From Anaerolineae bacterium (GTDB lineage Bacteria > Chloroflexota > Anaerolineae > UBA1429), in assembly GCA_963675785.1 (NCBI GenBank), contig OY776562.1, positions 320,001-384,000 of the forward strand: a stretch of DNA of 64,000 nucleotides. The letters are read 5' to 3'. The notes under the pieces were generated by a model that saw only the letters and a program-made list of their open reading frames with translations, was not told the origin of the DNA and did not search any database. The position numbers and the translations under genes are program-made. Positions within the stretch are counted from its first letter, which is position 1. The number at the start of each line of letters is the position of its first letter. Below are positions 28,661 through 43,193 of this stretch, one piece after another.

Positions 28661-29449
28661 CTAGATGCAGTCGATGACCCAACCAAGTCGCACCAAACGC
28701 TGTTTGAGTATCTCTAGCACTTTGGAACTCAGACCAAGCTCGTCTTCAATATTCTCCAGATCTTCTATGGTGCCATAGCCTCCTAAAAAGGCGTTAACAC
28801 GCATGACAGCCGTAGAGTTGATATAGTCCTGCAAATCAGGATAGATGGCCATGAATTCTGCATCTACAGGTCCTAGGTTTCGCAAACGGAACTTTTGGTG
28901 ATAACCCTCGGCCAGGTAAAAATGATCTAGTGGTTCGATAGCTGTGGCAAAGGATGCGCCTCGTAGCTCTTCTTGAGCCGCTAGGCTGTCCTTAGCAATT
29001 TGTCGCTGTTCCTCGTTAGAATAGAGGATGGCCGAGCGATATTGCACCGAACCGCTGGCGACAGTAGGGTCGTGCCCTTGCCAGAATACGTCCAGCAATT
29101 CCTCATAACTGATGACCGTCGGATCATAATCGATCTGGATCGTCTCCGAGTGATCCCCCAGGCTGTAATAAGTGGGGTCGATTGTTGTGCCGCCTGCATA
29201 GCCGACGCGCGTGCGGATGACCCCGTCGAGACTCCCGAACCGGGAGTCAGGCCCCCAGAATCAACCCATAGAAAAAGTAGCTGTCTCGTAATCAGCAGGC
29301 ATGTTACGATCGATTTCAGGTATTTCTCGTTCCGTATTCACTGATATCAACTCCTCATTAGACGAACAGCCACCAAGTGCCAGAGATGATATACCAAGGG
29401 CTGCAATGATGGCGATGATGTACCAGGGAAAACGTACTATGGATGCCAT
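28661..29449 (-). CDS. msrA: selenocysteine-containing peptide methionine sulfoxide reductase A, lipoprotein (262 aa, Sec63)
   Basis: Track ORFs 29261..29449 and 28661..29098 are one frame joined at TGA 29261-29263. This gives FSMG-U-FWGPD...TRVGYAGG...AEGYHQK, so Sec replaces the catalytic Cys of GCFWG. Confidence 0.92.
29230..29248 (-). promoter_or_regulatory. SECIS element of msrA
   Basis: GACUCCCG-GUU-CGGGAGUC hairpin starting 12 nt after the UGA. Confidence 0.8.
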
Positions 29450-29829
29450 ATCTCACCTCACTATCGGTATGGACTATCAAGTCTATTATTTTAATGATAC
29501 CACAGCTTGACATAAAAGTGAAGTAAGAATTTAGAGCGAAACTGAACAGACGCTTAACAAGACAGTGACTCAGCTTGAACTAGCCTGACCTACAATAATC
29601 GTGTGGGGTACTAGAGATTCGTGGAGAACTCGGTCGTGATTATAGATGTTGGTAGCGTGTATCTTTCGAGTCGACACGGTGAGATGCGCACAGTCTTGTT
29701 GTTGTCCTCGGCTGCCTTGGCTTGACACTCTTGCAGATATCGGCATTTTTGGGGATATCATGCGGTCAAACAAGCATTGCGGCTAGATCCGATTACCGCG
29801 CTGGGTTATAAATGGGGAGGAGGGTATAT

Positions 29830-30324
29830 ATGAAGAGACGGGTCGTTGTTATTGCTATTTGTATAATTGTTATTTTATTGGGTTTTTCTGCCTATTTTTT
29901 ATACGCCGATCTAATTTTTGGCGAATTGGGCACCACATCAACAACGACCGAGTTTTCCGACCTGGCCAAGTTAGCCTATGGTACTGTAGCACTGGGAGAG
30001 ACCGAGTACGCTGTAACCACAAAAGATGCCCAGAGTCTGCTAAATCTTTGGGAAATGACACAGGTACTTGCCTCGGATGACACAACAACTGAGGCCGAGA
30101 TTGAGGTAATGTGTCAATCGATCGAGTCGGCAATGACGGAAGAACAGCTGGCTGCTATTGAGGTTCTCAAGCTGGATTCTAGCACAGCTCAAGATTACAT
30201 CTTGAGTAATGGAACCACTGATACGAATGATCTTTTAGATGAAGAGAGTGCTGATTCGCAAGCTGTGAGTACTGTTATCTCTTACCTTCAAGGTATTCTG
30301 AGCATGGAAACTACGACTCCATAG
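29830..30324 (+). CDS. hypothetical membrane-anchored acidic protein
   Basis: N-terminal TM helix and GGAGG upstream. No family recognised. Confidence 0.7.
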   Translation: MKRRVVVIAICIIVILLGFSAYFLYADLIFGELGTTSTTTEFSDLAKLAYGTVALGETEYAVTTKDAQSLLNLWEMTQVLASDDTTTEAEIEVMCQSIESAMTEEQLAAIEVLKLDSSTAQDYILSNGTTDTNDLLDEESADSQAVSTVISYLQGILSMETTTP

Positions 30325-30488
30325 GAGAGCACCACGACCTATGCAGTGTGGCGATATAGCTTTATTAGGGAAAAAGTATTGCGATGGGCTGGTGGCATAA
30401 TTATGCCGAAATGCCAGCAAATTCGTTGTTTTTATGCGAGAACAAAATTGTGGGATTGTGGCCCGGCGACGTTGCCGGGCCGAGGAGA

Positions 30489-30527
30489 AAAGAGGAGCAG
30501 CACCTTGCCAGATGCTGCTCCTCTTTT
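30489..30527 (-). terminator. amtB terminator
   Basis: AAAGAGGAGCAGCA/TGCTGCTCCTCTTT. Confidence 0.8.
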
Positions 30528-30530
30528 GTA

Positions 30531-31832
30531 CTATTCAACAAATTCGGGGTAAGACTCAATGCCGTGGTAGGCAATGTCGATACCGGATTCCTCAACCTCG
30601 GGGGCCACACGCAGGCGCATGGTCTTTTTGATGATGTAGAACATGAGGAAAGAGACCGGTAGTACAAAGCCCATGGCGGAGACGACGCCCAGTGCCTGGA
30701 CACCGAGCTGGTGCCAGCCGCCACCGTAAAATAGGCCGGTTTCAGTGTGGAAAAGGCCGATAGACAATGTTCCTAAAATGCCGTTGAGACCGTGAACTGG
30801 AAATGCGCCAACAGGATCGTCGACCTTGATGACTTCCATAAGTTGTACACCATAGTAGACAACAAAACCAGACATCACGCCGATGAGCAGAGATACTGCA
30901 GGGGTGACAAAGGCGCAGGGTGCGGTGATAGCAACCAGGCCAGCTAGAGAACCATTGAAGGCCATGCTAACATCCCACTTTTTGGTAAAGATGTAAGAGA
31001 GGAAAATGGCCGTAATAGCGCCCGTTGTCGCTGCAAAGTCCGTGTTGAGCGTAACCAAGGCGATGGCGTAGGGATCGTCTGCGCTGAGTGTGCTACCCGG
31101 GTTAAAGCCGAACCATCCGAGCCAGAGAATGAATGTGCCCAGTGCCGCGATGGTAATATTGTGACCTTTGATAGTTTCGCCAAAGACCTTATCCTTGCGC
31201 TTGCCGAGCATGATGGAACCGGCAAGGCCAATACAAGCACCGACGAGGTGAACGACTGTGGAACCGGCAAAGTCGAGCATGCCCAGCTCGGCAAGCCATC
31301 CACCATTACCCCAGATCCAGTGTCCGACGATTGGATAGATGAATGCACCTGTGACCAAACTGTAAACGAGGTCGGCTTTAAAGTCGGTACGTTCTGCCAT
31401 GAGACCAGAGGCGATAGTTGATGCTGCTGCCGAAAAAGCGAACTGGAAAAAGAAAAAGGCATAAGCGGGGAGACCGGAAACTTGTTCGGGCATACCTTGC
31501 AAGAAGAACCACTGATGGCCAGCGAAACCTGAACCTGCACTGAACATAATGCCAAACCCCACGGCCCAAAAGCCGATGGTGGTCATGGTCGTATCCAAAA
31601 AGTTCTCAGCCATAATGTTCACAGTGTTCTTGGAGCGCACGAATCCGGCTTCGAGAAAACCGAATCCACATTGCATAAAGAACACCAAGAACCCCGCGAT
31701 GATCACCCACACGGTGCTTATAGATAAGGACACATCAGCGAGCTCTGTCGCTGCACTTACTGCTAGGGGATTTAACATGGTAATAATCCCCATTATCAAA
31801 AGTGTGCGTTTCAGCCATGGCTTGTTTTTCAT
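30531..31832 (-). CDS. amtB: ammonium transporter
   Basis: FFMQCGFGFLEAG, DFAGSTVVH, WFGFNPGS and DDPVGAFPVH motifs. Confidence 0.95.
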   Translation of the reverse strand: MKNKPWLKRTLLIMGIITMLNPLAVSAATELADVSLSISTVWVIIAGFLVFFMQCGFGFLEAGFVRSKNTVNIMAENFLDTTMTTIGFWAVGFGIMFSAGSGFAGHQWFFLQGMPEQVSGLPAYAFFFFQFAFSAAASTIASGLMAERTDFKADLVYSLVTGAFIYPIVGHWIWGNGGWLAELGMLDFAGSTVVHLVGACIGLAGSIMLGKRKDKVFGETIKGHNITIAALGTFILWLGWFGFNPGSTLSADDPYAIALVTLNTDFAATTGAITAIFLSYIFTKKWDVSMAFNGSLAGLVAITAPCAFVTPAVSLLIGVMSGFVVYYGVQLMEVIKVDDPVGAFPVHGLNGILGTLSIGLFHTETGLFYGGGWHQLGVQALGVVSAMGFVLPVSFLMFYIIKKTMRLRVAPEVEESGIDIAYHGIESYPEFVE

Positions 31833-32057
31833 TCTGCGGCTCCTGTTTCTGATACCAACTGACAATCATCCGAGTTTTTTGGCGCCGTTGCCGCATTGAA
31901 CTGAACGCGGCGTTGATGCAGGACAAACATCCTGCGCCCAACGCCGCGCCCAGTTCACGTCTCTATGAACTACACGTTACCATAGTGTAGTTCCAGCCTG
32001 GCTTCATTAAGCACACTGCACATGAACGTTTTGGATCGAGTGTGCACCCTTAATAAG

Positions 32058-32092
32058 AAAGGCAGGTTCACAATAGACGTGAACCTGCCTTT
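32058..32092 (-). terminator. selD operon terminator
   Basis: AAAGGCAGGTTCAC/GTGAACCTGCCTTT. Confidence 0.75.
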
Positions 32093-32111
32093 GAATCCAA
32101 ACCGGTTATCC

Positions 32112-33161
32112 TTAGGGAATGACTCTGACGCCGCACCCTTTGTAAGCGCTACCTACCACCCAGAAAGATTGTCCTTCTTCATCAAGCGCTTTTGCAAGCG
32201 CATTGGCACGGTCAGGGGCTACAGCAATGAGCAAGCCTCCCGATGTTTCGGGTGTAAACAGCAGAGTGCGCATTTCCGCCGAGATGGATTCATCAAAAGT
32301 GACATGTTTTGTGTAAAAGTTCTCATTGCGGCAGGCCCCGCCGGGGAAGAGCATGTCGTCTGCATACTGAATGGCCCCTGAAATGAAAGGTAGCTTGGAG
32401 AACTCGAACTCCAAGCCGATATTGCCCTTTTCGGCCATCTCCCAGGAATGCCCCAGCAGGGCAAAGCCGGTGATATCGGTTACGGCGTGCACGCCAACTC
32501 TACGAATGGCCTGAGCAGCTTGTTTGTTCAGGCGTTTCATGCTTTCGGTGGCTTCGGCAATGTGTTCTTCGGCGGCCAGCTGGGCTTTGGCAGCCGTGTT
32601 GATAACACCCACGCCCAATGGTTTGGTGAGGAGAAGAATGTCGCCTGGTTTTGCGCCGCCCTTGGTAAATATCCTGTCGGGGTGAACTGTGCCCATCACT
32701 GATAGGCCATACTTGGGCTCTTTATCGTCAACGGTGTGTCCGCCAGCAAGAACGCCACCTGCTTCACGTACCTTTTCCCCGCCGCCCCTGAGGATTTCCG
32801 AGGCAACTTCTGTAGGCATATCTTTGGGGAAGCAGAACACGTTGAGCGCAAGCACGACCTCACCGCCCATTGCATAGATGTCACTTAGCGCATTGGCAGC
32901 AGCGATCGCGCCATAGTCATAAGGGTCATCTACTATGGGTGTGAAAAAGTCCAGCGTTTGAACGATGGCCAGCTCGTCACTGATTTTGTAGACGGCAGCA
33001 TCATCCGACACACGCAGCCCAACCAACAGGTTGGGGTAGTCTTCAGCTTGGAAAAGAGCTTGCAAGGGACGCAGTACCTGCGCCAGGGTCTCAGGACCCG
33101 TCTTGGCCGCTCAACCTGCTGCAGTTGTCATGGCGGTAAGGCGAATTCGCTTATCATCCAT
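32112..33161 (-). CDS. selD: selenide, water dikinase (selenophosphate synthetase), selenoprotein (349 aa, Sec17)
   Basis: ATG 33161 behind GGGGGAG gives MDDKRIRLTAMTTAAG-U-AAKTGP. TGA 33111-33113 is in frame with the track ORF (DDAAV, DFFTP, DITGFALLGH, ETSGGLL). Confidence 0.95.
33068..33099 (-). promoter_or_regulatory. SECIS region of selD (two hairpins)
   Basis: GGGUC-CUGA-GACCC and GGCGCAG-GUA-CUGCGUC downstream of the UGA. The second resembles the GCAGGUCUGC tip of the E. coli fdhF SECIS. Confidence 0.7.
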
Positions 33162-33201
33162 GTGTTCTCCCCCTTTCGAATACAGTGTTGCCCTGGTCAC
33201 C

Positions 33202-33423
33202 CTACAGATCGTGGATCCCCTCTATCTCTAGCTTTTGCTTGGTCAATTCTGCCAGCGCTCTCTCTTTATCATCCGTGGCAATGCTCACGCAAATGCCGCA
33301 TTCAGAGGAGAGTGTTCTGGGGACGGGTATCAAGCGACAAGGTATTCTTACTCGCGTGAGCAGATGTTCTGCCCGCACGGCATAATTCGTACCATATACC
33401 AAAATGACGGTCTGCTTGATCAT
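33202..33423 (-). CDS. DUF3343-like small protein (selenium/sulfur-associated)
   Basis: PVPRTLSSECG motif. Located between the desulfurase and selD. Confidence 0.8.
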   Translation of the reverse strand: MIKQTVILVYGTNYAVRAEHLLTRVRIPCRLIPVPRTLSSECGICVSIATDDKERALAELTKQKLEIEGIHDL

Positions 33424-34580
33424 CGCCTAGAGGCCTCCTGGGCAAGCGACCGCACGGCGTTCAGTGTTTCCAATATCTCTTGCTCTGTGGTTAGGGCGCT
33501 CATGCCCAAGCGGACTGTGCCCTCTGGGAAAGTACCCATGGTGTGATGTGCTGCTGGAGAACAATGTAGCCCGACACGGCAGGCGATGCCAAATTCCGTA
33601 TCAAGGCGTAACCCCACCTCTGAACAGGGCATGTTAACGATGTTGAACGACACGGTTGCCGTTTGGCATGTTGCATCATGCGTGCCATAGACCTGAATAT
33701 ATGGCATATCGTACAGGCCTTGGATGAGCAGTTGTGTGAGCTGCATTTCGTGAGCACGGATACTATCGATTCCCCTATCAAGCAGCCAGTCGATCCCTGC
33801 TACAAGCCCGGCTAGCCCCACCACATTGAGCGTGCCACTCTCGTACTTGTCGGGGCAACGGGTGGGCTGGAATTCCTCTTCTGATCGACTTCCCGTGCCG
33901 CCGCGTTTGAGCGGCTCAAATTCATCAATGTCAACACGAGGGCCAATAACGAGACCGCCAGTGCCCATAGGTCCGCATAGGGCTTTGTGGCCGGTAAAGG
34001 CGAGCAAATCAATGCTGCTGGTTTGCATATCGATGGGAACGGAGCCAGCAGTTTGGGCTGTATCGACCACAAAAAGAGCCTGGGTGCTGCGCACGATTTG
34101 ACCGATTTCGTCGATAGGCTGAATGGTGCCCACCACATTCGAAGCGTGATTGACGATGACGAGACGGGTGTTGGAGCGAATAGCCTGGCGAATGGCTTCA
34201 GAGGCGACGAGGCCTTCTGGCGTGCAAGGAACGACGGTCAGCTCTATGCCCTGGCTTTCCACATAGCGCAAAGGCCGCATGACGGCATTATGCTCCATGC
34301 CTGTTGTAACAACGTGATCCCCAGGCTTGAGCAGACCATGGATAGTCAAGTTCAAGGCCTCGGTAATATTGGCTCCAAAAACCACGCGCATGGGATCTGG
34401 GGCTCCAAAAACCCTGGCAATGCTCTCCCGTGTGCGGTAAATGAGGCGCCCCGACTCAATGGCGTTGTGATGTGCAGCACGCCCTGGATTGGCCCCGACG
34501 TTCTTGATAAACTCGCACATTGCCTCAGCTACGCCGGGAGGCTTGGGCCACATGGTTGCCGCGTTATCCAAATAGATCAA
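33420..34580 (-). CDS. cysteine desulfurase / selenocysteine lyase-like PLP enzyme
   Basis: YLDNAAT, HASNVVG, DTAQTAG, FTGHK and RVGLHC motifs. Start moved to TTG 34580, behind AGGAG. Confidence 0.9.
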   Translation of the reverse strand: MIYLDNAATMWPKPPGVAEAMCEFIKNVGANPGRAAHHNAIESGRLIYRTRESIARVFGAPDPMRVVFGANITEALNLTIHGLLKPGDHVVTTGMEHNAVMRPLRYVESQGIELTVVPCTPEGLVASEAIRQAIRSNTRLVIVNHASNVVGTIQPIDEIGQIVRSTQALFVVDTAQTAGSVPIDMQTSSIDLLAFTGHKALCGPMGTGGLVIGPRVDIDEFEPLKRGGTGSRSEEEFQPTRCPDKYESGTLNVVGLAGLVAGIDWLLDRGIDSIRAHEMQLTQLLIQGLYDMPYIQVYGTHDATCQTATVSFNIVNMPCSEVGLRLDTEFGIACRVGLHCSPAAHHTMGTFPEGTVRLGMSALTTEQEILETLNAVRSLAQEASRR

Positions 34581-34592
34581 GAAACTTCTCCT

Positions 34593-34645
34593 ATCGGGGC
34601 GAGCTCCTGGAGGAATTTTCCCCTCCTCCAGGAGCTCGCCCCCGA
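34593..34645. repeat. perfect 22-bp inverted repeat inside the selenium operon
   Basis: ATCGGGGCGAGCTCCTGGAGGA / TCCTCCAGGAGCTCGCCCCGAT with a 9-nt loop. Confidence 0.9.
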
Positions 34646-34648
34646 TCT

Positions 34649-34855
34649 CTACTTGCTGATAGTCAGTGCAAATCCATCGTTCTGTTCGATGGCAGAGACG
34701 ATGCAACCCTGTTTTTCAGCGATGCGGCGGACATTCTCTCGTGAAGTTACTGTATCGACGAGAACGACAAATGGAAACTCACCTTCATCAATCGCTTTGC
34801 GTGTAAGGATAACGGGTTGAGGGCAAGAGAGGCCCTGTGCATCTACCGTTTTCAT
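34649..34855 (-). CDS. TusA/SirA/YedF-like S/Se carrier protein
   Basis: MKTVDAQGLSCPQP motif. ATGA overlap with the yedE stop. Confidence 0.88.
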   Translation of the reverse strand: MKTVDAQGLSCPQPVILTRKAIDEGEFPFVVLVDTVTSRENVRRIAEKQGCIVSAIEQNDGFALTISK

Positions 34856-35982
34856 GCTTCTACCCTCCCGGGTTTTTCTCTCATTGTAAAACCAATAATC
34901 AGGCATATGGCAATGCCTACAAATACTGCGATCATGCCCCAAGTGGAGATGCCACCGACTTTGACTATGCCATCGACGACCGAGTCGGGCGAAGCAGCCA
35001 AGCTAAAGTTGTGCGCAAAAGCAGCGCCGGCGATCATTCCCAGTACAAAAGTAGCTGCATCGCTATCACCTTCACCCGAAAGGATGAGTTGCCGTCCTGG
35101 GCAACCGCCAGCCAGAGAAAATGCTAAACCAGCGAGTACCATGCCAGCAAAGTTCCAGAGCGTGTTGCTGTGAGCAATAGGCTGACCAGCAAAGCCGAGA
35201 TTGAACTGTCCGAGGATAAGGTTCATGAGGAACGCGACCACGACAAGGGATCCGAGACCACTGATAAGGTGCGTATCGCCCATGAGGATAACATCACGGA
35301 TGGATCCCATGGTGCAGAAACGGGTACGCTGGGCCAAAAAGCCAATGAGCAGACCAGCAGCAAGGGATATGGCGATAGGTGCGGCCATCGAGCCCGGCCC
35401 TGATTCGCTGGAAAAAATGGCACCGCCTTCGGAGAATTGCGGTTGCCAAATAGCCAGAATGAGCAGAAACACCATGATGGAAGGCATGATCCAGCCTACA
35501 GTGGCGCGTTGTGTATGCGCTCGCCCCAGAGTATAACCGTGCTTGAGGAACCACACGCCACCGGCAATGCCAACTGCTAGGCCGACAAGACCGACGATGG
35601 CGTTCATATCTCCGCCAGCCAGACGCAGCAGTGCTCGCCAGGGGCAGCCGAGAAAGACGAGGGCACCGATCATGGCCAGCATACCCAGGATAAAGCGGAT
35701 GATGGGGGCAGAACCACCGCGTGCTTTCCACTCTCTAAAGAGCAATGCGGCGATAACGGAGCCAAGAACAAAGCCCATAATCTCAGGGCGCAAGTATTGC
35801 ACAACACTGGCCCTGTGAAGTCCCAATGCTCCGGCGATATCGCGCTCAAAGCAAGCTACACAGATGCCCATATTGGGCGGATTGCCCCAGTACTGGAGTA
35901 GGGAAGCGAGAATGCCGATGACTGCACCGGCAACGATGATCCCCCATCGAGAGGCGAAAAAGCGAGTCAGTCGTTGGCGCAT
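34852..35982 (-). CDS. yedE: YedE/YeeE-family putative selenium transporter
   Basis: GNPPNMGICVACFERD, GCPWR, RFCTMG and GGCPGRQL motifs. Context with selD. Confidence 0.9.
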   Translation of the reverse strand: MRQRLTRFFASRWGIIVAGAVIGILASLLQYWGNPPNMGICVACFERDIAGALGLHRASVVQYLRPEIMGFVLGSVIAALLFREWKARGGSAPIIRFILGMLAMIGALVFLGCPWRALLRLAGGDMNAIVGLVGLAVGIAGGVWFLKHGYTLGRAHTQRATVGWIMPSIMVFLLILAIWQPQFSEGGAIFSSESGPGSMAAPIAISLAAGLLIGFLAQRTRFCTMGSIRDVILMGDTHLISGLGSLVVVAFLMNLILGQFNLGFAGQPIAHSNTLWNFAGMVLAGLAFSLAGGCPGRQLILSGEGDSDAATFVLGMIAGAAFAHNFSLAASPDSVVDGIVKVGGISTWGMIAVFVGIAICLIIGFTMREKPGRVEA

Positions 35983-35987
35983 GGGTT

Positions 35988-36069
35988 CCTCCTGTGCATG
36001 TTGGGCTGCGCTGGAATGACAGCCCGTTGTGCACGAGGAGACTATTTGAGCAGGGAAGGGTCATTCCAG
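35988..36069 (-). promoter_or_regulatory. alternative RBS-sequestering / anti-sequestering hairpins
   Basis: CUCCU(C)GUGCA pairs with UGCACAGGAG, covering the yedE RBS. CUGGAAUGAC (36060-36069) pairs with GUCAUUCCAG (36011-36020) in a mutually exclusive way. Confidence 0.7.
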
Positions 36070-36152
36070 AGGAGCCGTTTGATTTGGTGAGAGCAGAGAG
36101 TGCCGTCCGGCACCCGATTTTTCCGCTCTCAGATTCGATGTTGAATTGGCAT
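36042..36152 (-). CDS. candidate selenocysteine leader peptide MPIQHRI-U-ERKNRVPDGTLCSHQIKRLLWNDPSLLK
   Basis: AGGAGG at 36159-36164, ATG 36152, in-frame TGA 36129-36131, SECIS-like hairpin 36098-36115, TAG 36042-36044. Confidence 0.7.
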
Positions 36153-36207
36153 CACGATCCTCCTAGCGACATGTTGCCAGTATACTCCAAGTGTCAAGAG
36201 TCATAAA

Positions 36208-38130
36208 GGAAAGAAGAGGGGGGGGCAAGCTTACGCTTGCCCCCCCCTCGGTCATGCCAAGTTCTAGTAGTTACAAAAGATCAGGGGGAAAGCAATAGTC
36301 GTCGTCGGAGTTCGAAGGGGCTGGTAACTATAGTTACCAAAGGTAGCGCTGCCAGAATCACCATCCAGTAGCTCGACAGAGACAGAAGATTCAGTCGTGC
36401 AGGTCAGGCTACTAGGCGTGACCTCGACGATGCGATAGTTACCGGCACCCAGGCCAGCGATTCGCCAAGAGCCATCTGCGCCGGTCTTGGTGGTAGCCAC
36501 GAGATCTTCCTGGCCGGTTTCCGGATTAACAGCATAGACCTGGATTGTGAGGCCAGCGATACCGGCCTCATTCTGGTCCTGGGCACCGTTCTTGTTGCTA
36601 TCGTTAAAAGCCGTGCCCGAGAGAGAGCCAGGGAAAGAGCAGCCAAAGGAGACATCTGCGGCGATGCCGTCGGCGACAGAGATGTCCTGATAGAGGAGAT
36701 CACAGGTAACGCCGTCGGGGAAATCGGGCACGACGCGGTAGTCGCCGTCGGCCAGGCCGCCGAACTGATAGACACCGGCTGCGCTGGTGGTAGACGTGGT
36801 GATGAGCTCATCATCGCCAGTACCCAGGAGGCCATCAGAGCCAGGGCCATAGATACTGACAAGAATACCAGCCAGAGGAGTCTCGCCATAGTCAGGGAGA
36901 TCATCCTGATCGGCATCATCCCAGATAACGCCAGTGGTTTTGCAAGTCATGGTATCGCCAAAGTTAATGATACTGGGTGTTTTGGTGTTGACCGTAACCT
37001 CGACCTGGCCAGGAGTTGTGCTGACATGACCTTCAGGGTCGATCTCGACGAGAGCGAAACTGGCATAGCCCATGTTATCAAAGACATAGGTACCGAGTTC
37101 AAGCTGAGAGAAACTGTAGAAGCCGTCCTCGTCGGTAATACCTTCAACGAGAAGGAGATCAGCGTTGGGAGAGACGACCTCACTGCGGGCATAGACCTGG
37201 ATGAGGACACCGGCGATACCCTGTTCGGTAGCATCCTGGAGGCCATTGGCATTGGCGTCTTCAAAGACAGTACCAGCGATAGTACCGGTAGGCTGAGCGC
37301 CGACAGAGATAGAGCTGGCGCCGTCGCTACCGATATAGACATCGCGTGTGAGAGGCGATTCGCCGACATAGCCATCGGGATAGTCGATGATGATGCGATA
37401 GTAACCCTCGGGGAGATCACCGAGAGAGACATTGCCGTCCTCATCGGTGGTCAACTCGGTGATGAGGACATCGTCATCGGTACCGAGGATGCCGTCGGGA
37501 CCAGCGGAGATAACGGTGACGGAGGCTCCCGGGAGAGGCTCGTTGTCATCATTCGGCTTATCGCCGAGTTGAGGATCGATACAGGTATGGACATAGAGGG
37601 TGCCTGTTTTGAGATAGCCAAAGGCAGGCTGGGTCATAGATTGACCTTCGCTGATAGAGATTTGGCGTTGAGCGACACCGCTCATAGCGTAGCCATCGAC
37701 ATTGGCAGCGCAGACCATATAGCTACCGTCGGCAAGGCCGGTAAAGACATAGGCACCGTCGGCTTCGGTAGAGCCTGAGGCAACGACGACATCGTCAGCA
37801 GTACCAAAGCGGGCGTCGGCACCGGGTCTGAGGAGAGAAAGGGACACATCGGCCAGTGGGGAGCCGCTTTCCGCGTCCTGCCCCACATAGGCCTTGACGC
37901 GGAGCTGAGCGATGGACTGACAGCCAAAGTTCTTGGAGAGCACGTTACCGGCGATGACATTGACGGTAGCCGGGTTGGCGGTGGTCACGGTACTGCCAGT
38001 GGGAGCAGTGACCTGGATAAGATATGTGCCAGCGAGCAGATCTTCAAAGGCATAGGAGCCGTCGGCTGCAGTCGTGAGAGAACTCAAAGTAGCATCATCG
38101 GCTGTGTAGGCGATGCCGTCGGAGCCTAAA
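36208..38130. repeat. copy 1 of a ~1.9 kb near-identical repeat (3' end and terminator of giant gene)
   Basis: Matches 43547-45471 at an offset of about 7341 bp. The spurious ORFs in the track are also identical between copies. Confidence 0.95.
36216..36249 (-). terminator. terminator of giant gene 1
   Basis: GAGGGGGGGGCAAGC/GCTTGCCCCCCCCTC followed by a U-rich tract on the minus strand. Confidence 0.8.
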
Positions 38131-41100
38131 GAGACTAGCTTGACCGAAGCATTTGCTACAGCAGCTTCATCAGTCCCCAACTTGCCGTTTCCATTAGTGT
38201 CTGTATAGATCACACCACTGATATCGCCTGTGGTGGGAGCCGGCGTAGGAGTTGCTTGAGGCGGGACGGTGGGCACCGGTGTAACAGCAGGATTGGGCGT
38301 AGGTGTAGTAACGGCACGATTACTCTCGATAGAGAGGGTAACGGTACAAGTATCGGTGAGGCCGCCCAGATCGACGACGGTATAGGTAAAGGCGTCGTGA
38401 GTAGTGACGGCATAGCTAGCCGAGTAGGCGATGGTGTCGTCGTCTAGGAGAGAGACAGAGCCATAAGTAGAGTCGCCGACGGAAGCGATGGCGAGGTCAC
38501 CGACTTCGATATCTGTATCATTGGCGAGAACGTCGATGATGACCTGTTCACCAGCGCGCACCTCAGCTTCATCCTCCACGGCATCAGGTGAGTCGTTTAC
38601 GGCTATAACGGTCATGCTGATGGTATGGCTGTCACTCAAAGGAGTTCCCGTGCCAGAGTGCCCCAGATCATTTACATCAAGACTGATTGATTCAGGACCC
38701 TCATAGTTGAGATTTCCTTGATAGTAAAGTCCGCTATCGAGCAGAGCGTTGAGGTCTTGGAGACTATCTGTAATGGTTAGTGTACTAGCAGCGTCGATAT
38801 CATTTGTCCCAAGTGTTCCATGTTCTACACTGGCTACCAGTTCAAGATTCTCAGAACCCGAATCGACATCGCTCAATTGAATAGCCAAGGCATCCACGAG
38901 ATTGAGCGTTTCATCTTCATTGACTGAAGCATTTGCAGGAGCCGTGACGACAGGGCTATCGTTGATGGGTGTGATGCTGATGTTGATTGTGCCTGTTACG
39001 ACACCACCCCTACCGTCTGAGACGGTATACACCAATGCATCAGTCCCCGAATCGCCAGGAACAGGATAGTTTGTTGCAGGCGTGTAGACGACTGCTGTTT
39101 TGTCATTCGATACAGCGGCTACGCCATGTTGTGCTGTTGTGACAGAGATAATGATCAGTACTTCATCATCATCTACGTCGCTGTCATTGGACAGAGCAGA
39201 AAATGTATTGCCCACTGAGTCTTCATCAACGGTATAGTCGTCGTCGACCACAACCGGATCATCGTTCACTTCAGTGATAGTAATAGTCAGACTATATGGT
39301 GAAGCAGAGTCTCTACCGCCATTGCTGGTACCACCATCGTCCTTTAGAACGACAGCAACGCGTGTCGTACCATAGGCATTGAGTGCAGGTGTAAAGGTCA
39401 GTGTGCCATCGGCCGATACGGAGGGTTGTTCAGAGAACAGGGCAGTGTCTTCGGCAGTGGCTTCAAAGTGCAGCTCTTGATCGCTTTCATCACTGGGGCC
39501 GGTGGAGAGGTTCGTAGCCCAATTGGCGACGGTTTGAGCGGAAGCATCCTCCAACAGAGTCTGGTCTTCACCGGCATCAAAAGAAGGAGTATCGTTCACG
39601 GGTGTGATATTGATGGTAAAGGTAATAGCATCTGACTCGTCATCACCACCATTAGCAGTGCCGCCGTTATCAGAAAGTATCACTGTAACAGTAGCCGTGC
39701 CATTCATATTGGCTGCTGGCCGATAGGTGAGAGCACCAGTTGATGAGATGGCTGGCTGAGAGCTAAAGAGCGTCGAGTTATTGCTAGAGACCTCAAAGGA
39801 GACGCTTTGGCCACTCTCATCACTGGGACCGGCGGAGAGGTTAGTAGCCCAATTGGCGACGGTTTGAGCGGAAACATCCTCCAACACGGTCTGGTTTGCG
39901 CCAGGGGTGAAGGACGGCGTATCGTTCACGGGTGTGACATTGATGGTAAAGGTAATAGCATCTGTCTCGTCATCACCACCGTTGGCAGTGCCACCGTTGT
40001 CAGAGAGAGTAACAGTAACAGTGGCCGTCCCATTCATGTTAGCAGCAGGCGTAAAGGTGAGCGTGCCGTTGGAAGAAATAGCAGGCTGAGAGCTAAAGAG
40101 TGCCGAGTTATTGCTAGAGACCTCAAAGGAGACGCTTTGGTCACTCTCATCACTGGGGCCGGTGGAGAGGTTCGTAGCCCAATTGGCGACGGTTTGAGCG
40201 GAAGCATCCTCCAACACGGTCTGGTTTGCACCAAGGGTGAAAGAAGGCGTATCGTTCACGGCTGTGACATTGATGGTAAAGGTAATAGCATCTGCCTCGT
40301 CATCACCACCGTTGGCGGTGCCACCGTTGTCAGAGAGAGTAACAGTAACAGTGGCCGTGCCATTCATATTGGCTGCTGGCCGATAGGTGAGCGCACCAGT
40401 TGATGAGATGGCTGGCTGGACGCTAAAGAGTGTCGTGTTGTCATTGGATACGACAAAGGAAACCGTTTGGCCGCTCTCGTCACTGGGGCCTTTGGAGATA
40501 TCTGTGGCCCAGGTAACAGATTGTGAGACTGCATCTTCTAGCACCGTCTGGTTAGCGCCTGGCGTGAAAGAGGGCTCGTCGTTGACTGCGGTTACAATAA
40601 TAGACCATGTTGCTGGTGCACTCCACAATTCGCCATCATAGAGCGAAAAGGTAAAGGAGGTAGAGCCATTCCAGTCTACATCAGGAGCCAGTCGGACATC
40701 GTCAAAATCGGTGTAGGCATAAGCTTGGGATTCATCAACAGCCTCATCATTTCCAAACAAAAGACGGGCGTTAGCGGGCAAGGTGTCGATACGTACAGAG
40801 ACGAGGGCATCTCCGCTATCTGGATCGGAAAAGACGCCGGTGAAATCGCTGCCAGCCAGACCGAAGAAGGTATCCTCCAGTGTTGTTTTTGAAATGCCGG
40901 ACGCGGAGGGTTGCTCGTTGGCATCTATGATGCTGATTGTGAACGTGTGATCATAGTAGAGCCCGCCAGCATCGGTGGAACGCACAGTCACCGAGTAGCT
41001 GTTGTCAGCTTCGTAGTTGAATACAGTTGCTGCTTTTAACGAGTTTCCAGAGATGCTAAAGGCAGAGGTGTCGCCGCCAACTATTGAGTAAGTGAAGCTA

Positions 41101-43193
41101 TCACTGCTGTCTGGGTCAGTACTGCTCAAAGTACCAATTGTAATGTCCAAAGTCTGGTTTTCAACTATAGAGCTGTTTGTAATGCTCAAAGCAGTAGGTG
41201 CTTCGTTGACGTTGGTGACACTGATGGTGAACGCACGGTCATAGTAAAGACCGCCAACATCGGTGGAACGCACGGTCACCAAATAGCTGTTGTCGGTCTC
41301 GTAATTGAACACGGCCGCTGTCTTGAGCGAGCTGCCCGAAATGCTAAAGGCAGAAGTATCTCCACCAACTATTGAGTAAGTGAAGCTATCTCCAGAATCT
41401 GGATCAGTGGTTGACAGCGTGCCAACTGTAGTGCCAGATGATACATTTTCTGCTACGGCATTGTTGGACAAAGCGATCGCCGTGGGTGTCTCGTTGGCAT
41501 TTGTGATACTGATAGTAAAGGCACGGTCATAGTAGAGGCCGGCCGCGTCGGTGGCACGAATAGTGATGGAATAGCTGTTATCAGACTCATAATTGAAGGA
41601 AGTTTCCGTGAGTAGCGTACTCCCCGAGATACTAAAAGCCGAGGTATCGCCACTGACGAGCAAATAGCTAATGGTATCATCGCTATCAGGATCGACGCTG
41701 CTTAGCGTGCCTACTGGCGTTCCAGAAGTCTGATTTTCAGCTAAAGATGTATTTGAAAGAGTAACGGTTGTGGGTGCTTCGTTTAAATCGGTAACGCTGA
41801 TAACATATGTTCGATCAAAATAGAGACCGCCGGCATCGGTAGAACGCACGGTGACCGAGTAGCTGTTATCAGCCTCATAGTTTAATACAGATGAAGTGCG
41901 TAACGTGCTACCAGAGATGTTAAAGTAACCAGTATCTCCACTAACGAGTGAATAGGTAAATGTATCGCTACTATCCGGGTCGGTTGTGGAGAGCGTGCCT
42001 ACTGTGGTGTTTGCAGAGGCGTTTTCTGCTACAGAGTTGTTGGACAGGCTCATCGCCGTTGGCGACTCGTTTACATTTAGGATGGGCACAGTGAGCCATT
42101 CACTGTAGGTATTGGCGTAGCTGTCGGTGGCTTGAATCTGTACCTGATAAGAAGAGATTTGTTCATAGTCAAAGCTTGAACCTAAAGCCGTCACGAGAGA
42201 ATAGGTACCTTCGGATTCGGTGATGGCAAACTGACCGTCAGCATCATTGAGCAGGATAAAGGTATGTGTATCGTTGAGGTCAGCATCTGTGGCGGCCAAG
42301 GGGCCGATTTCTGTGCCAGGAGCGCTATTTTCAGGCAGGCCTACTTGCCAATCAGAGACTTGGCCATCATGCACGAGCCAAAGCCAGACGCCCGCATGAT
42401 CGATATTGGTAGCATCCGAGGCGGTATCGAGAGCCAACATGGCGGCGTTGTCGCCAGATTGAGGCAACTCGGAATAGTTGGTCTGGTCGCCAGCGGTCCA
42501 ACCTGCGGTTGCCGTAGTCGATGTGTCAGTGAGAATCCATTCAATAGCTTCATAGCGGATTTCGATGGCAAAGTCACCACCGCCGATATCCCAGAGGCGA
42601 ATCTGGAAGGCGTTGGACTTGTCATTGTGTGAAGAGTAATAGCCGGTGTCATCAAAAGTGATGGTGACACAGTCATTGACGGTATCGATGTCGTACCAGA
42701 TTTGGTTACTGCCTTGCGAGTTACCCGTTGTATCGTAGGTAATGCTGGAAGCACGAGTATCGACATCGCCAAAGTAAGCGGCGATCATGGGAACGGTGGA
42801 ACCGGCGATACCCCAGGGACTGTAAGAGCTAGAGCCTTCACCAAAAGTGACATAGCCGTTACGTCCAATAAAGAACTCAGTAGCGGCGTCGTAAGGGGTC
42901 TCTCTAAAGTAGTTGAGGCCATTCTCAAAAACGGCAGAGATATCGACTTGCTGATAGCCATCGTCTCCTTTGGAGACACTGCCCTCACCAAAGCCATAGG
43001 TACCACCGAGACCATTGACGAGATAGTGACCGGATTCGATGTATAGACTACCGTTGCCGCTTGTGGAGAGGCCGAACTTGATTTTAGTAGGTGCTACGCC
43101 TTCGGCGGATACGGTTGGCACAAGTCCTAGCAAGGCCGTGGCTAGAAGCAAGAATGCTGCAAGAATGAGAGTAAGTCGATGTGGCGATTGCAT
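36264..43193 (-). CDS. giant secreted surface/adhesin protein (nidogen-like, cadherin/Ig-like repeats, PT linker, SdrD-B-like repeats)
   Basis: Signal peptide, NGYVTF...IAAYFGDVD, STTDPD...FNYE...VRSTD cadherin units, VNDxPSF repeats and GTVFEDANANG-type repeats. Confidence 0.85.
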   Translation of the reverse strand: MQSPHRLTLILAAFLLLATALLGLVPTVSAEGVAPTKIKFGLSTSGNGSLYIESGHYLVNGLGGTYGFGEGSVSKGDDGYQQVDISAVFENGLNYFRETPYDAATEFFIGRNGYVTFGEGSSSYSPWGIAGSTVPMIAAYFGDVDTRASSITYDTTGNSQGSNQIWYDIDTVNDCVTITFDDTGYYSSHNDKSNAFQIRLWDIGGGDFAIEIRYEAIEWILTDTSTTATAGWTAGDQTNYSELPQSGDNAAMLALDTASDATNIDHAGVWLWLVHDGQVSDWQVGLPENSAPGTEIGPLAATDADLNDTHTFILLNDADGQFAITESEGTYSLVTALGSSFDYEQISSYQVQIQATDSYANTYSEWLTVPILNVNESPTAMSLSNNSVAENASANTTVGTLSTTDPDSSDTFTYSLVSGDTGYFNISGSTLRTSSVLNYEADNSYSVTVRSTDAGGLYFDRTYVISVTDLNEAPTTVTLSNTSLAENQTSGTPVGTLSSVDPDSDDTISYLLVSGDTSAFSISGSTLLTETSFNYESDNSYSITIRATDAAGLYYDRAFTISITNANETPTAIALSNNAVAENVSSGTTVGTLSTTDPDSGDSFTYSIVGGDTSAFSISGSSLKTAAVFNYETDNSYLVTVRSTDVGGLYYDRAFTISVTNVNEAPTALSITNSSIVENQTLDITIGTLSSTDPDSSDSFTYSIVGGDTSAFSISGNSLKAATVFNYEADNSYSVTVRSTDAGGLYYDHTFTISIIDANEQPSASGISKTTLEDTFFGLAGSDFTGVFSDPDSGDALVSVRIDTLPANARLLFGNDEAVDESQAYAYTDFDDVRLAPDVDWNGSTSFTFSLYDGELWSAPATWSIIVTAVNDEPSFTPGANQTVLEDAVSQSVTWATDISKGPSDESGQTVSFVVSNDNTTLFSVQPAISSTGALTYRPAANMNGTATVTVTLSDNGGTANGGDDEADAITFTINVTAVNDTPSFTLGANQTVLEDASAQTVANWATNLSTGPSDESDQSVSFEVSSNNSALFSSQPAISSNGTLTFTPAANMNGTATVTVTLSDNGGTANGGDDETDAITFTINVTPVNDTPSFTPGANQTVLEDVSAQTVANWATNLSAGPSDESGQSVSFEVSSNNSTLFSSQPAISSTGALTYRPAANMNGTATVTVILSDNGGTANGGDDESDAITFTINITPVNDTPSFDAGEDQTLLEDASAQTVANWATNLSTGPSDESDQELHFEATAEDTALFSEQPSVSADGTLTFTPALNAYGTTRVAVVLKDDGGTSNGGRDSASPYSLTITITEVNDDPVVVDDDYTVDEDSVGNTFSALSNDSDVDDDEVLIIISVTTAQHGVAAVSNDKTAVVYTPATNYPVPGDSGTDALVYTVSDGRGGVVTGTINISITPINDSPVVTAPANASVNEDETLNLVDALAIQLSDVDSGSENLELVASVEHGTLGTNDIDAASTLTITDSLQDLNALLDSGLYYQGNLNYEGPESISLDVNDLGHSGTGTPLSDSHTISMTVIAVNDSPDAVEDEAEVRAGEQVIIDVLANDTDIEVGDLAIASVGDSTYGSVSLLDDDTIAYSASYAVTTHDAFTYTVVDLGGLTDTCTVTLSIESNRAVTTPTPNPAVTPVPTVPPQATPTPAPTTGDISGVIYTDTNGNGKLGTDEAAVANASVKLVSLGSDGIAYTADDATLSSLTTAADGSYAFEDLLAGTYLIQVTAPTGSTVTTANPATVNVIAGNVLSKNFGCQSIAQLRVKAYVGQDAESGSPLADVSLSLLRPGADARFGTADDVVVASGSTEADGAYVFTGLADGSYMVCAANVDGYAMSGVAQRQISISEGQSMTQPAFGYLKTGTLYVHTCIDPQLGDKPNDDNEPLPGASVTVISAGPDGILGTDDDVLITELTTDEDGNVSLGDLPEGYYRIIIDYPDGYVGESPLTRDVYIGSDGASSISVGAQPTGTIAGTVFEDANANGLQDATEQGIAGVLIQVYARSEVVSPNADLLLVEGITDEDGFYSFSQLELGTYVFDNMGYASFALVEIDPEGHVSTTPGQVEVTVNTKTPSIINFGDTMTCKTTGVIWDDADQDDLPDYGETPLAGILVSIYGPGSDGLLGTGDDELITTSTTSAAGVYQFGGLADGDYRVVPDFPDGVTCDLLYQDISVADGIAADVSFGCSFPGSLSGTAFNDSNKNGAQDQNEAGIAGLTIQVYAVNPETGQEDLVATTKTGADGSWRIAGLGAGNYRIVEVTPSSLTCTTESSVSVELLDGDSGSATFGNYSYQPLRTPTTTIAFPLIFCNY

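Follow-up and report, generated by a model that had tools for sequence, protein, structure and literature searches.

In a 64,000-nucleotide stretch of DNA from an Anaerolineae bacterium (contig OY776562.1, positions 320,001 to 384,000; hereafter the window), the selenium operon yedE-tusA-csd-DUF3343-selD on the minus strand is preceded by a short leader. Judged by its sequence and by modelled folds, this leader very likely acts as an attenuator that depends on the decoding of selenocysteine (Sec). The complete proposal, which we favour with moderate confidence, is that the leader is a ribosome-mediated leader-peptide attenuator that senses SelB/Sec-tRNA via an in-frame UGA and switches the operon ON when Sec is scarce. 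Taken by itself this sign, Sec scarce = operon ON, is probable to about the same degree; we infer it from the arrangement of the parts, and it is the weakest step for the translational variant found in the window.

The proposed mechanism would run as follows. A short upstream open reading frame (uORF) at the 5´ end of the operon mRNA would be translated up to its in-frame UGA. If Sec-tRNA(Sec) and SelB are available, Sec would be inserted and the ribosome would continue through the roughly 25-38 read-through codons, which hold the 5´ strand of an anti-structure. Read-through would melt the anti-structure, a terminator (in most relatives) or a hairpin sequestering the Shine-Dalgarno (SD) sequence (in the window) would form, and the operon would be turned down. 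If Sec-tRNA is scarce, the ribosome would stop on the UGA and cover the uORF but not the anti-strand, and the uncovered anti-strand would allow the anti-structure to form and the operon to be expressed. The parts of the window leader, including a hairpin of the selenocysteine insertion sequence (SECIS) type, are these:

36159-36164, minus strand: SD sequence of the leader uORF, AGGAGG, 6 nt before the ATG and ~50 nt past the terminator of the upstream gene
36129-36152, minus strand: leader uORF, seven codons (M P I Q H R I) and UGA; ATG at 36152-36150, in-frame UGA at 36131-36129
36088-36131, minus strand: SECIS-type hairpin (RNAfold), with an apical 7-bp stem and GGAC loop at 36098-36115 and a 10-bp lower stem
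36042-36128, minus strand: continuation of the leader frame past the UGA, 28 codons, with the stop UAG at 36044-36042; the whole frame has 36 aa
36060-36076, minus strand: 5´ strand of the anti-sequestrator, GGCU.C.CUGGAAUGAC, inside the read-through frame (constrained and truncated folds)
36004-36020, minus strand: 3´ strand of the anti-sequestrator, formed by the loop and 3´ arm of the sequestrator's inner hairpin (constrained and truncated folds)
35988-36040, minus strand: SD-sequestering hairpin, 53 nt, -26.8 kcal/mol, whose 3´ arm is the yedE AGGAGG (35993-35988)

The original prediction, made from the letters alone, had described this ribosome-binding site, the ATG at 36152, the seven codons, the in-frame UGA and a hairpin 13 nt later, and all of them were found again on the minus strand at the same coordinates. 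The 10-bp lower stem (36131-36122 with 36097-36088) that takes in the UGA and the 36-aa read-through to the UAG at 36042 were likewise as described. The strands of the apical stem are GGGUGCC (36115-36109) and GGCACUC (36104-36098). A hairpin over the yedE SD (35988-35993, upstream of the yedE ATG at 35982) had also been proposed, and RNAfold reproduced it together with the extended SECIS-like hairpin. This sequestering hairpin begins 1 nt past the read-through UAG and consists of the outer helices CUCCU/AGGAG and GUGCA/UGCAC and the inner helix GGGCUG/CAGCCC; no U-run follows it, and the terminator search at 35988-36040 returned nothing. The predicted alternative pairing between leader codons and sequestrator is a perfect 10-nt complement, CUGGAAUGAC (36069-36060) with GUCAUUCCAG (36020-36011), and only 2 of 5000 shuffles gave the read-through region a perfect complement of at least 10 nt in the SD hairpin. 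The 226-nt leader as a whole folds with -75.6 kcal/mol (z = -3.15), a stability reached by 1 of 200 shuffled sequences (RNAfold). We propose the UGA at 36131-36129 as the Sec sensing codon.

By its gene content, the genome has the capacity to decode Sec. A tRNA-Sec, SelB (with a wing domain within a 640-aa frame) and SelD are present, and Sec codons lie in selD, msrA and a peroxiredoxin-like frame. The selenoprotein MsrA is encoded at 28664-29452 on the minus strand (Pfam PMSR), with its UGA at 29263-29261 and Sec in the context GUFWG; the peroxiredoxin-like frame lies outside the window (C1:276363, minus strand) and has Sec in ..FTFVUPTE... The likeness to the msrA SECIS that had been seen from the letters holds: the msrA hairpin has the loop GGUUC and lies 12 nt past the UGA, the peroxiredoxin-like frame has a GGUC-loop hairpin 11 nt past its UGA, and the geometry of the leader hairpin in the window resembles both. 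The leader shows the following features of a bacterial SECIS: a hairpin a short distance 3´ of an in-frame UGA, a frame that continues past the UGA, and a host with Sec machinery.

To find out how widespread the leader is, we collected yedE orthologues from 60 related genomes and our own (37 of the 61 searched matched) and read 320 nt upstream of each. Among the 29 yedE loci outside our own genome two were cut by contig ends, and at L014 and L020 yedE lies inside an operon. An SD, a start codon, a short UGA-ended frame and a nearby hairpin were found upstream of yedE in 25 of the 27 evaluable loci of relatives, of which L008 and L009 are atypical. The layout expected in front of orthologous yedE/selD operons is thus there, and it also occurs before selD and csd (see below). 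Further loci came from a scan with a YedE alignment through one genome per species (80 loci) and from a metagenome scan (80 loci). The first-pass filter demanded an SD, a start and a hairpin, and within the filtered set these features therefore do not count as independent findings; it also made false or misplaced calls, L132, L148, L165, L169 and L188 being doubtful by eye. More independent lines are the covariance model matches outside the training set, the covariation and the analyses of the frame.

The covariance model, R1, was built on 75 non-redundant cores (alignment A4) with the window sequence among them; L008, L009, L022-L031, L087, L124, L131, L132, L148, L165, L166, L169, L187 and L188 were left out. 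For L148 and L187 it located the true element at another place than the filter had done, and it matched L165. Training sequences match R1 by construction. With a cut-off of E<=0.01, R1 matched 31 of the 80 genome loci, 29 of these labelled as Chloroflexota lineages, 54 of the 80 metagenome loci and 13 of the 20 loci L003-L022. In our own genome the sole match at this cut-off was the window leader (31.2 bits, E 4e-4), itself a member of the training set; two more matches (E 0.29 and 0.62) were treated as noise. Searched independently of yedE, 24 of 151 genomes sampled from the class gave a match, and in 150 other genomes of a phylum-level sample R1 found nothing at E<=0.001. In matches outside the training set (L041, L066, L050, L038, L136, L178, L180 and most of the class-level matches) a start codon, ATG or GTG, stands in frame nine codons ahead of the UGA. 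Given that the element is conserved and that it covaries (see below), we reject a chance origin.

The leader is associated with selenium genes and not with yedE alone. Of the 25 R1 matches outside our own genome in the class sample, 14 precede yedE. Six other strong matches have different neighbours. In L201 the leader stands directly before selD, in a genome without a YedE match at E<=1e-20; in L197 it is followed by a short fragment and then selD; in L206 it precedes a class-V aminotransferase gene (csd), and in L196 a 99-aa frame without a Pfam match. The L195 leader lies just after selB (genome G078); downstream come genes for a nucleotidyltransferase and a chorismate mutase and, before yedE, a second leader (L218), as if an insertion had split the locus. 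The sixth leader, in L219 (~1884-1966), comes with a terminator and precedes a gene of the HGD-D family (L219:70-1344, minus strand), the 2-hydroxyglutaryl-CoA dehydratase D-component family, which is not known as a selenium gene. Two leader copies per genome were seen in L195/L218 (same contig, ~2.7 kb apart), in L107 (871-953 and 2253-2332) and in G173 (on two contigs). In L213, a weak match (E 2.9e-4) before a class-V aminotransferase gene, UCA replaces the UGA, and this may be a degenerate or Sec-independent copy.

A second subtype was found in L022-L031, which belong to the same family (YedE 60-65% identical). It has a ..H-R-R-T-UGA peptide and a different hairpin, of the AUGCAC..GUGCAU type with the loop ~20 nt past the UGA, and is without a U-run terminator; R1 did not detect this subgroup. 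In a first alignment with both subgroups mixed (A1, MAFFT) the hairpins were out of register and pair counts were weak, and the groups were then split. The alignment of L022-L031 (A5) is too divergent downstream for an analysis of covariation. In yedE loci labelled Desulfobacterota neither the filter nor R1 found a convincing leader, a search that did not extend to other leader types.

In the SECIS-type hairpin, the loop starts 18 nt past the UGA in 63 of the 75 non-redundant leaders, the spacer up to the contiguous stem measures 11 nt in 44 and the stem has 7 bp in 48. GGUU, AGUU or GGUC forms the loop in 49 leaders, GU is present in the loop in 66, and G occupies loop position 2 in 70. It is known that E. 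coli requires an 11-nt spacing between UGA and SECIS and that SelB reads G/U bases of the SECIS loop. The stem is paired in 88% of cells and shows double changes in 10 of 11 pairs. The window copy is among the more divergent ones, with a spacer of 13 nt and a GGAC loop that has G at position 2 but lacks GU. All 75 aligned leaders have the UGA, but this is not an independent finding since the leader filter required TGA. In the proposed scheme SelB would bind the hairpin and the leader UGA would be decoded as Sec in vivo.

The original prediction had expected covarying stems and an unconserved peptide. SECIS stem, terminator and antiterminator do covary, but the peptide expectation failed: the residues before the UGA follow the consensus L-Y/H-H-R-R-T/I in the 75 leaders. 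Position -3 is Arg in 56 of them, with the codons CGC, CGA, CGG and CGT; position -2 is Arg in 37, Cys in 7, Leu in 6, Gln in 6 and UGA in 5; and position -1 is Thr in 46 and Ile in 18 (64 of 75 together). L024 uses AGA for the Arg at -2. In the subgroup L022-L031 the motif is H/Y/N/Q-R-x-T, with CGC, CGT or CGA at -3 and CGN, AGA, CAA, CAG or AAG at -2. The uORF of the window is homologous to the ..H-R-R-T/I-UGA leaders of the relatives. A part of this conservation may lie at the RNA level: uORF codons can pair with a downstream strand of the GGCGGUG type (71.6% paired, compared to 37-62% in slid controls), which gives moderate support.

Some leaders have two in-frame UGAs one codon apart (..U-I-U; L006, L008, L069, L139, L155, L164, L182/L184, L199 and L205). 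The second in-frame UGA accounts for 5 of the 75 aligned leaders, and other leaders have the Cys codon UGU at the same position. By analogy, the U-I-U variants recall the tandem regulatory codons of classical attenuators.

The frame is also kept past the UGA. In 21 of 34 terminator-type leaders the read-through stop falls into the same alignment column although the read-through length there ranges from 24 to 38 codons; indels have therefore kept the frame. Nothing would maintain the frame if the UGA always terminated translation.

In most relatives the output would be transcription termination and not SD masking. A GC-rich hairpin followed by a U-run was present in 35 of 51 leaders (L030 and L087 being doubtful) and in 50 of 55 leaders of a second set. 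The masking of the ribosome-binding site that had originally been proposed as the output therefore stands for the window, where the hairpin masks the yedE SD, but does not describe most of the family. Across 69 non-redundant leaders of this type (a set without L132, L148, L165, L169, L188, L124, L131, L030, L087, L141, L166, L170 and L187) the terminator lies 16-51 nt past the read-through stop. RNAalifold on an alignment of 34 terminator-type leaders (A3) predicted the SECIS stem and the terminator, whose helices are 95% and 89% paired. In addition, a 9-bp antiterminator helix is formed between a strand ~45-55 nt past the UGA (consensus GCAUACGYC, inside the read-through frame) and the loop and top of the terminator; it is 88% paired and shows double changes in 8 of 9 pairs. 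For SECIS stem and antiterminator helix as a whole, slid controls reached 31-51%, and none of 500 shuffles reached the observed values. In full folds the antiterminator helix extends and sequesters the 5´ arm of the terminator.

For the 69 non-redundant terminator-type leaders we computed P(terminator), the probability at equilibrium that the terminator is formed, with the ribosome represented by masks on the RNA. On the ribosome-free RNA the median was 0.86, with 29 of 69 leaders below 0.5. A ribosome on the UGA lowered the median to 0.23 (40 leaders below 0.5, 18 above 0.9), and with a ribosome on the read-through stop it was 0.98, with 66 of 69 leaders above 0.9 and none below 0.5. In these modelled folds the antiterminator is favoured solely by a ribosome parked at the regulatory codon, which is the logic of the trp attenuator.

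As modelled, the window shares its design with the antiterminator found in the relatives, but its predicted output is SD masking. Enforcing the anti-sequestrator helix gave -62.3 kcal/mol compared to a minimum free energy (MFE) of -64.9 kcal/mol, and -43.4 compared to -46.3 kcal/mol with a ribosome on the UGA. The anti-sequestrator fold thus lies 2.6-2.9 kcal/mol higher; for transcripts ending at 151-168 nt it is itself the MFE structure, and the sequestrator wins only once the AGGAGG strand has been made. Folding with ribosome masks had been suggested as a check; the two folds are close in energy, and the SD stays paired with a ribosome on the UGA.

The sign of the regulation is the less certain part, and the caution in the original prediction that it could be reversed still stands. 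For Sec scarce = ON speaks that in each of the 69 leaders the antiterminator strand lies within the read-through frame, that this frame ends 16-51 nt short of the terminator, and that the position of its stop is conserved. Negative feedback also suits an operon for uptake and activation. In Methanococcus maripaludis selenium depletion raises yedE mRNA 5.28 log2-fold (PMC11097638), which is a physiological precedent for this sign.

Several points weigh against the proposal. The scheme supposes a ribosome that dwells on the UGA long enough; since UGA is a stop codon, release factor 2 (RF2) competes at the sensing codon, and fast release would return the RNA to the ribosome-free, terminator-favoured state and invert the sign. 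In 18 of the 69 leaders the terminator keeps its high probability even with a ribosome on the UGA. For the window, the yedE SD is unpaired with a probability of 0.05 both on the ribosome-free RNA and with a ribosome on the UGA, and it opens (0.59) only when a ribosome occupies the read-through UAG next to the sequestrator arm. In L022-L031 the yedE SD and start pair with sequence of the read-through frame, and read-through should thus unmask the SD. Sequestrator and anti-sequestrator of the window come from the folding of one sequence: the metagenome scan for relatives of this variant found none above 79% YedE identity. The consensus promoter scan between the upstream terminator (36249-36216) and the uORF gave no passing site in the window. 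The compared genomes are mutually related, so that the counts overstate the number of independent events. Two leader-bearing genomes have no SelB match; SelB was found in 22 of the 24 leader-bearing genomes, but this co-occurrence says little because SelB is present in 133 of the 151 class genomes.

Part of this evidence fits an alternative in which the element is the same and the sign is opposite, Sec decoding turning the operon ON; we regard it as rather unlikely, though it is the strongest of the alternatives. In translational forms a ribosome that reads through could physically expose the ribosome-binding site of yedE, as the SD opening in the window with a ribosome on the UAG and the pairing in L022-L031 would suggest. 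In terminator forms the ribosome could, dependent on SelB, pause on the UGA for long enough to favour the antiterminator, and rapid RF2 release without Sec-tRNA would lead to the OFF fold; the preference of the ribosome-free state for the terminator and the pairing of uORF codons with the downstream strand agree with this. selD, itself a selenoprotein gene, and its partners would then be expressed solely when Sec can be decoded, and the Sec codon in selD is in line with such logic. Furthermore, a Sec-encoding fdhF of Treponema primitia is transcribed to full length more often with selenium, via translational coupling (PMC3892789). Against the opposite sign, all 69 frames cover the 5´ strand of the antiterminator and end early enough to leave the terminator free. 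Read-through leading to termination predicts the conserved stop, whereas the opposite sign gives no selection for it. Positive feedback on an operon for the uptake of a trace element would be physiologically odd, and in M. maripaludis yedE is induced by selenium depletion.

That uORF and read-through frame are instead a gene for a small selenoprotein of ~30-45 aa with its own function (for example a selenium-handling peptide), with an ordinary hairpin downstream, is very improbable. Such a gene would explain the maintained frame with its conserved stop position, the conserved N-terminal motif before Sec and the place of the element among selenium genes. However, past the UGA conservation tracks RNA pairing and the compensatory changes between antiterminator and terminator loop alter residues, the read-through length varies from 20 to 38 codons, and a terminator between a ~30-aa frame and the operon with an antiterminator inside the frame is the anatomy of an attenuator. 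The two explanations are partly compatible and do not fully exclude each other.

Equally improbable is a SelB-binding operator as in the E. coli selAB 5´ untranslated region (UTR), at which SelB-GTP-Sec-tRNA would repress without a need for uORF translation: selenium genes whose 5´ leader holds a SECIS-type hairpin have this precedent (bioRxiv 10.64898/2026.03.03.709296; cited in PMC3892789), but here the SD, the in-frame start, the UGA-hairpin distance and the read-through frame are all conserved, the antiterminator strand lies inside that frame, and the hairpin is about 95-100 nt or more from the regulated SD, compared to 3 nt in selAB. We accordingly did not assign the leader to the selAB-type operator class; in the window the hairpin is ~95 nt from the yedE SD and follows the uORF UGA at SECIS distance.

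Returning to the attenuator with Sec scarce = ON, a wider view of the family can be offered tentatively. The attenuators could be a natural, class-wide family in which a race between Sec insertion and release at the leader UGA measures SelB/Sec-tRNA(Sec), with the nascent ..L-Y/H-H-R-R-T/I as an arrest or anti-release context and with two outputs, termination and SD masking. It is a speculation that the conserved peptide before the UGA slows release and so holds the ribosome until the antiterminator or anti-sequestrator has formed.

The regulated operon was identified as had been predicted from the letters (yedE-tusA-csd-selD), now on the basis of Pfam and TIGR matches, and it also contains a gene for a Se/S carrier-like protein:

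34852-35982, minus strand: yedE, putative selenium transporter, first gene of the operon (TIGR04112 seleno_YedE, 492.8 bits, cut-off 200; Pfam Sulf_transp)
34649-34942, minus strand: TusA-like sulfurtransferase, similar to the YedF N-terminal domain (Pfam TusA; TIGR03527 49.5 bits, under its cut-off of 110)
33420-34706, minus strand: class-V aminotransferase/cysteine desulfurase family protein, SclA-like (Pfam Aminotran_5; TIGR01977 458.3 bits; the SclA model gave 372.9 bits, under its cut-off)
33202-33423, minus strand: Se/S carrier-like small protein of the DUF3343 family (Pfam PF11823)
32112-33161, minus strand: selD, selenophosphate synthetase, last gene of the operon (TIGR00476, 391.8 bits)

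selD encodes a selenoprotein, with the Sec codon at 33113-33111 in the context ..TAAGUAAK.. (translated with TGA=U) and a small hairpin 11 nt past the UGA. Since its product makes the selenium donor and carries a Sec codon, its own synthesis requires Sec and is coupled to the action of the leader.

Upstream of the leader two further features were found:

36216-36249, minus strand: intrinsic terminator of the upstream gene for a 2309-aa repeat protein (terminator scan; 15-bp stem, then TTCTTTCCTT)
36179-36207, minus strand: possible promoter region, uncertain, read from the sequence (TTGACA at 36197-36192, TATACT at 36184-36179)

The terminator marks the start of a separate transcription unit; Rfam gave solely a sub-threshold terminator-like match there. 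The spacing between TTGACA and TATACT is 7 nt in the window, while in many relatives the two boxes ahead of the uORF are 16-18 nt apart, and an alternative -35 box (TTTATG, 36207-36202) is weak. Of 88 leaders of relatives, 38 have sigma-70-like sites, which lie at a median of 41.5 nt before the uORF start. The upstream gene (36264-43193, minus strand) encodes a 2309-aa protein with cadherin-like, Big_9, SdrD_B, SpaA and CarboxypepD_reg repeats, probably a surface adhesin. Elsewhere in the genome and outside the window (C1, ~1,075,300-1,081,030), the hairpin scan showed a regular series of the palindromic unit TCCCCAC GGGT GTGGGGA, which looks like a CRISPR array.

The leader has, at the sequence level, the anatomy of a leader-peptide attenuator, and its novelty would lie in the use of a recoded stop with a SECIS as regulatory codon. 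With attenuators of the trpL, hisL, pheL and thrL type it shares a short translated frame that contains codons of the sensed amino acid. In both the position of the ribosome would pick antiterminator or terminator, with three states (no ribosome or read-through leading to termination, the regulatory codon to antitermination), tandem regulatory codons occur (U-I-U in some members), and the genes downstream supply the sensed amino acid. Unlike in the trpL type, the regulatory codon is a stop that needs a SECIS in cis and a dedicated elongation factor, and therefore the hungry-codon state would be a competition with RF2 release and not a simple stall. Furthermore, the residues before the regulatory codon are conserved and the window copy would act on an SD. 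Two bacterial systems use a UGA in a short frame in a related way: in the tnaC leader tryptophan inhibits release by RF2 at a UGA, and the in-frame UGA of prfB senses the level of RF2. As in the leader, the fate of a ribosome on a short-frame UGA sets expression and the C-terminal peptide context is conserved; however, these systems sense free tryptophan or RF2 level and have no SECIS, whereas the leader would sense a charged tRNA via a SECIS-bound factor.

One selenium-related counterpart is the SECIS-like operator that E. coli has in the 5´ UTR of selAB (Thanbichler and Bock 2002), which lies 3 nt from the SD, is bound by SelB and represses translation (bioRxiv 10.64898/2026.03.03.709296). 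In both cases a SECIS-type hairpin in the leader of selenium genes would report the SelB/Sec-tRNA status to expression. The available summary of the selAB case (bioRxiv 10.64898/2026.03.03.709296) has neither a uORF nor UGA decoding, whereas the hairpin described here lies at SECIS distance from a uORF UGA and would act via distant alternative folds. In T. primitia fdhF(Sec) the decoding of UGA/SECIS also decides on downstream transcription, but there the Sec codon is codon 145 inside the enzyme gene and the SECIS itself is the proposed barrier; the accessible text describes no dedicated leader frame, antiterminator or terminator, and selenium means more full-length transcript (PMC3892789). 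An engineered attenuator for an unnatural amino acid (Liu et al., in PMC3892789) shares with the leader that decoding of a reassigned leader codon controls attenuation, but it is synthetic, and the same 2013 text states, in the part available, that an attenuator with a reassigned codon had not been reported in nature (PMC3892789).

A scan of 30000-40000 with Rfam release 15 at E<=10 found no family, leader families included, within 35980-36164, and the nearest matches were terminator-like (36207-36267). Full-text searches of the literature likewise found no Sec-codon leader or attenuator upstream of yedE/selD, in line with the original prediction, which knew of none; subscription papers and supplements lay outside this search, and an earlier description is possible there. 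In the portions available, neither the 2015 comparative-genomics paper on yedE/selD (PMC5322559) nor the 2026 review of prokaryotic selenoproteomes (PMC13188914) describes the leader, nor do PMC11955535, PMC3892789, PMC11097638 and bioRxiv 10.64898/2026.03.03.709296. According to PMC5322559, as far as its text was available, the network regulating selenium homeostasis is not fully understood, and a LysR-type factor is the sole proposal.

The occurrence of the same leader before selD and csd supports a role of YedE, YedF, csd and DUF3343 in selenium supply. It is also a warning for annotation, since a short frame for a selenopeptide in front of selenium genes may have a regulatory role. The element offers a compact natural genetic switch that responds to selenium as well as a natural reporter of the efficiency of Sec decoding compared to RF2 termination. 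If the proposed mechanism is true, the translating ribosome would give these bacteria a direct and protein-free measure of charged Sec-tRNA, and attenuation as a principle would then include the 21st amino acid as well as a stop codon.

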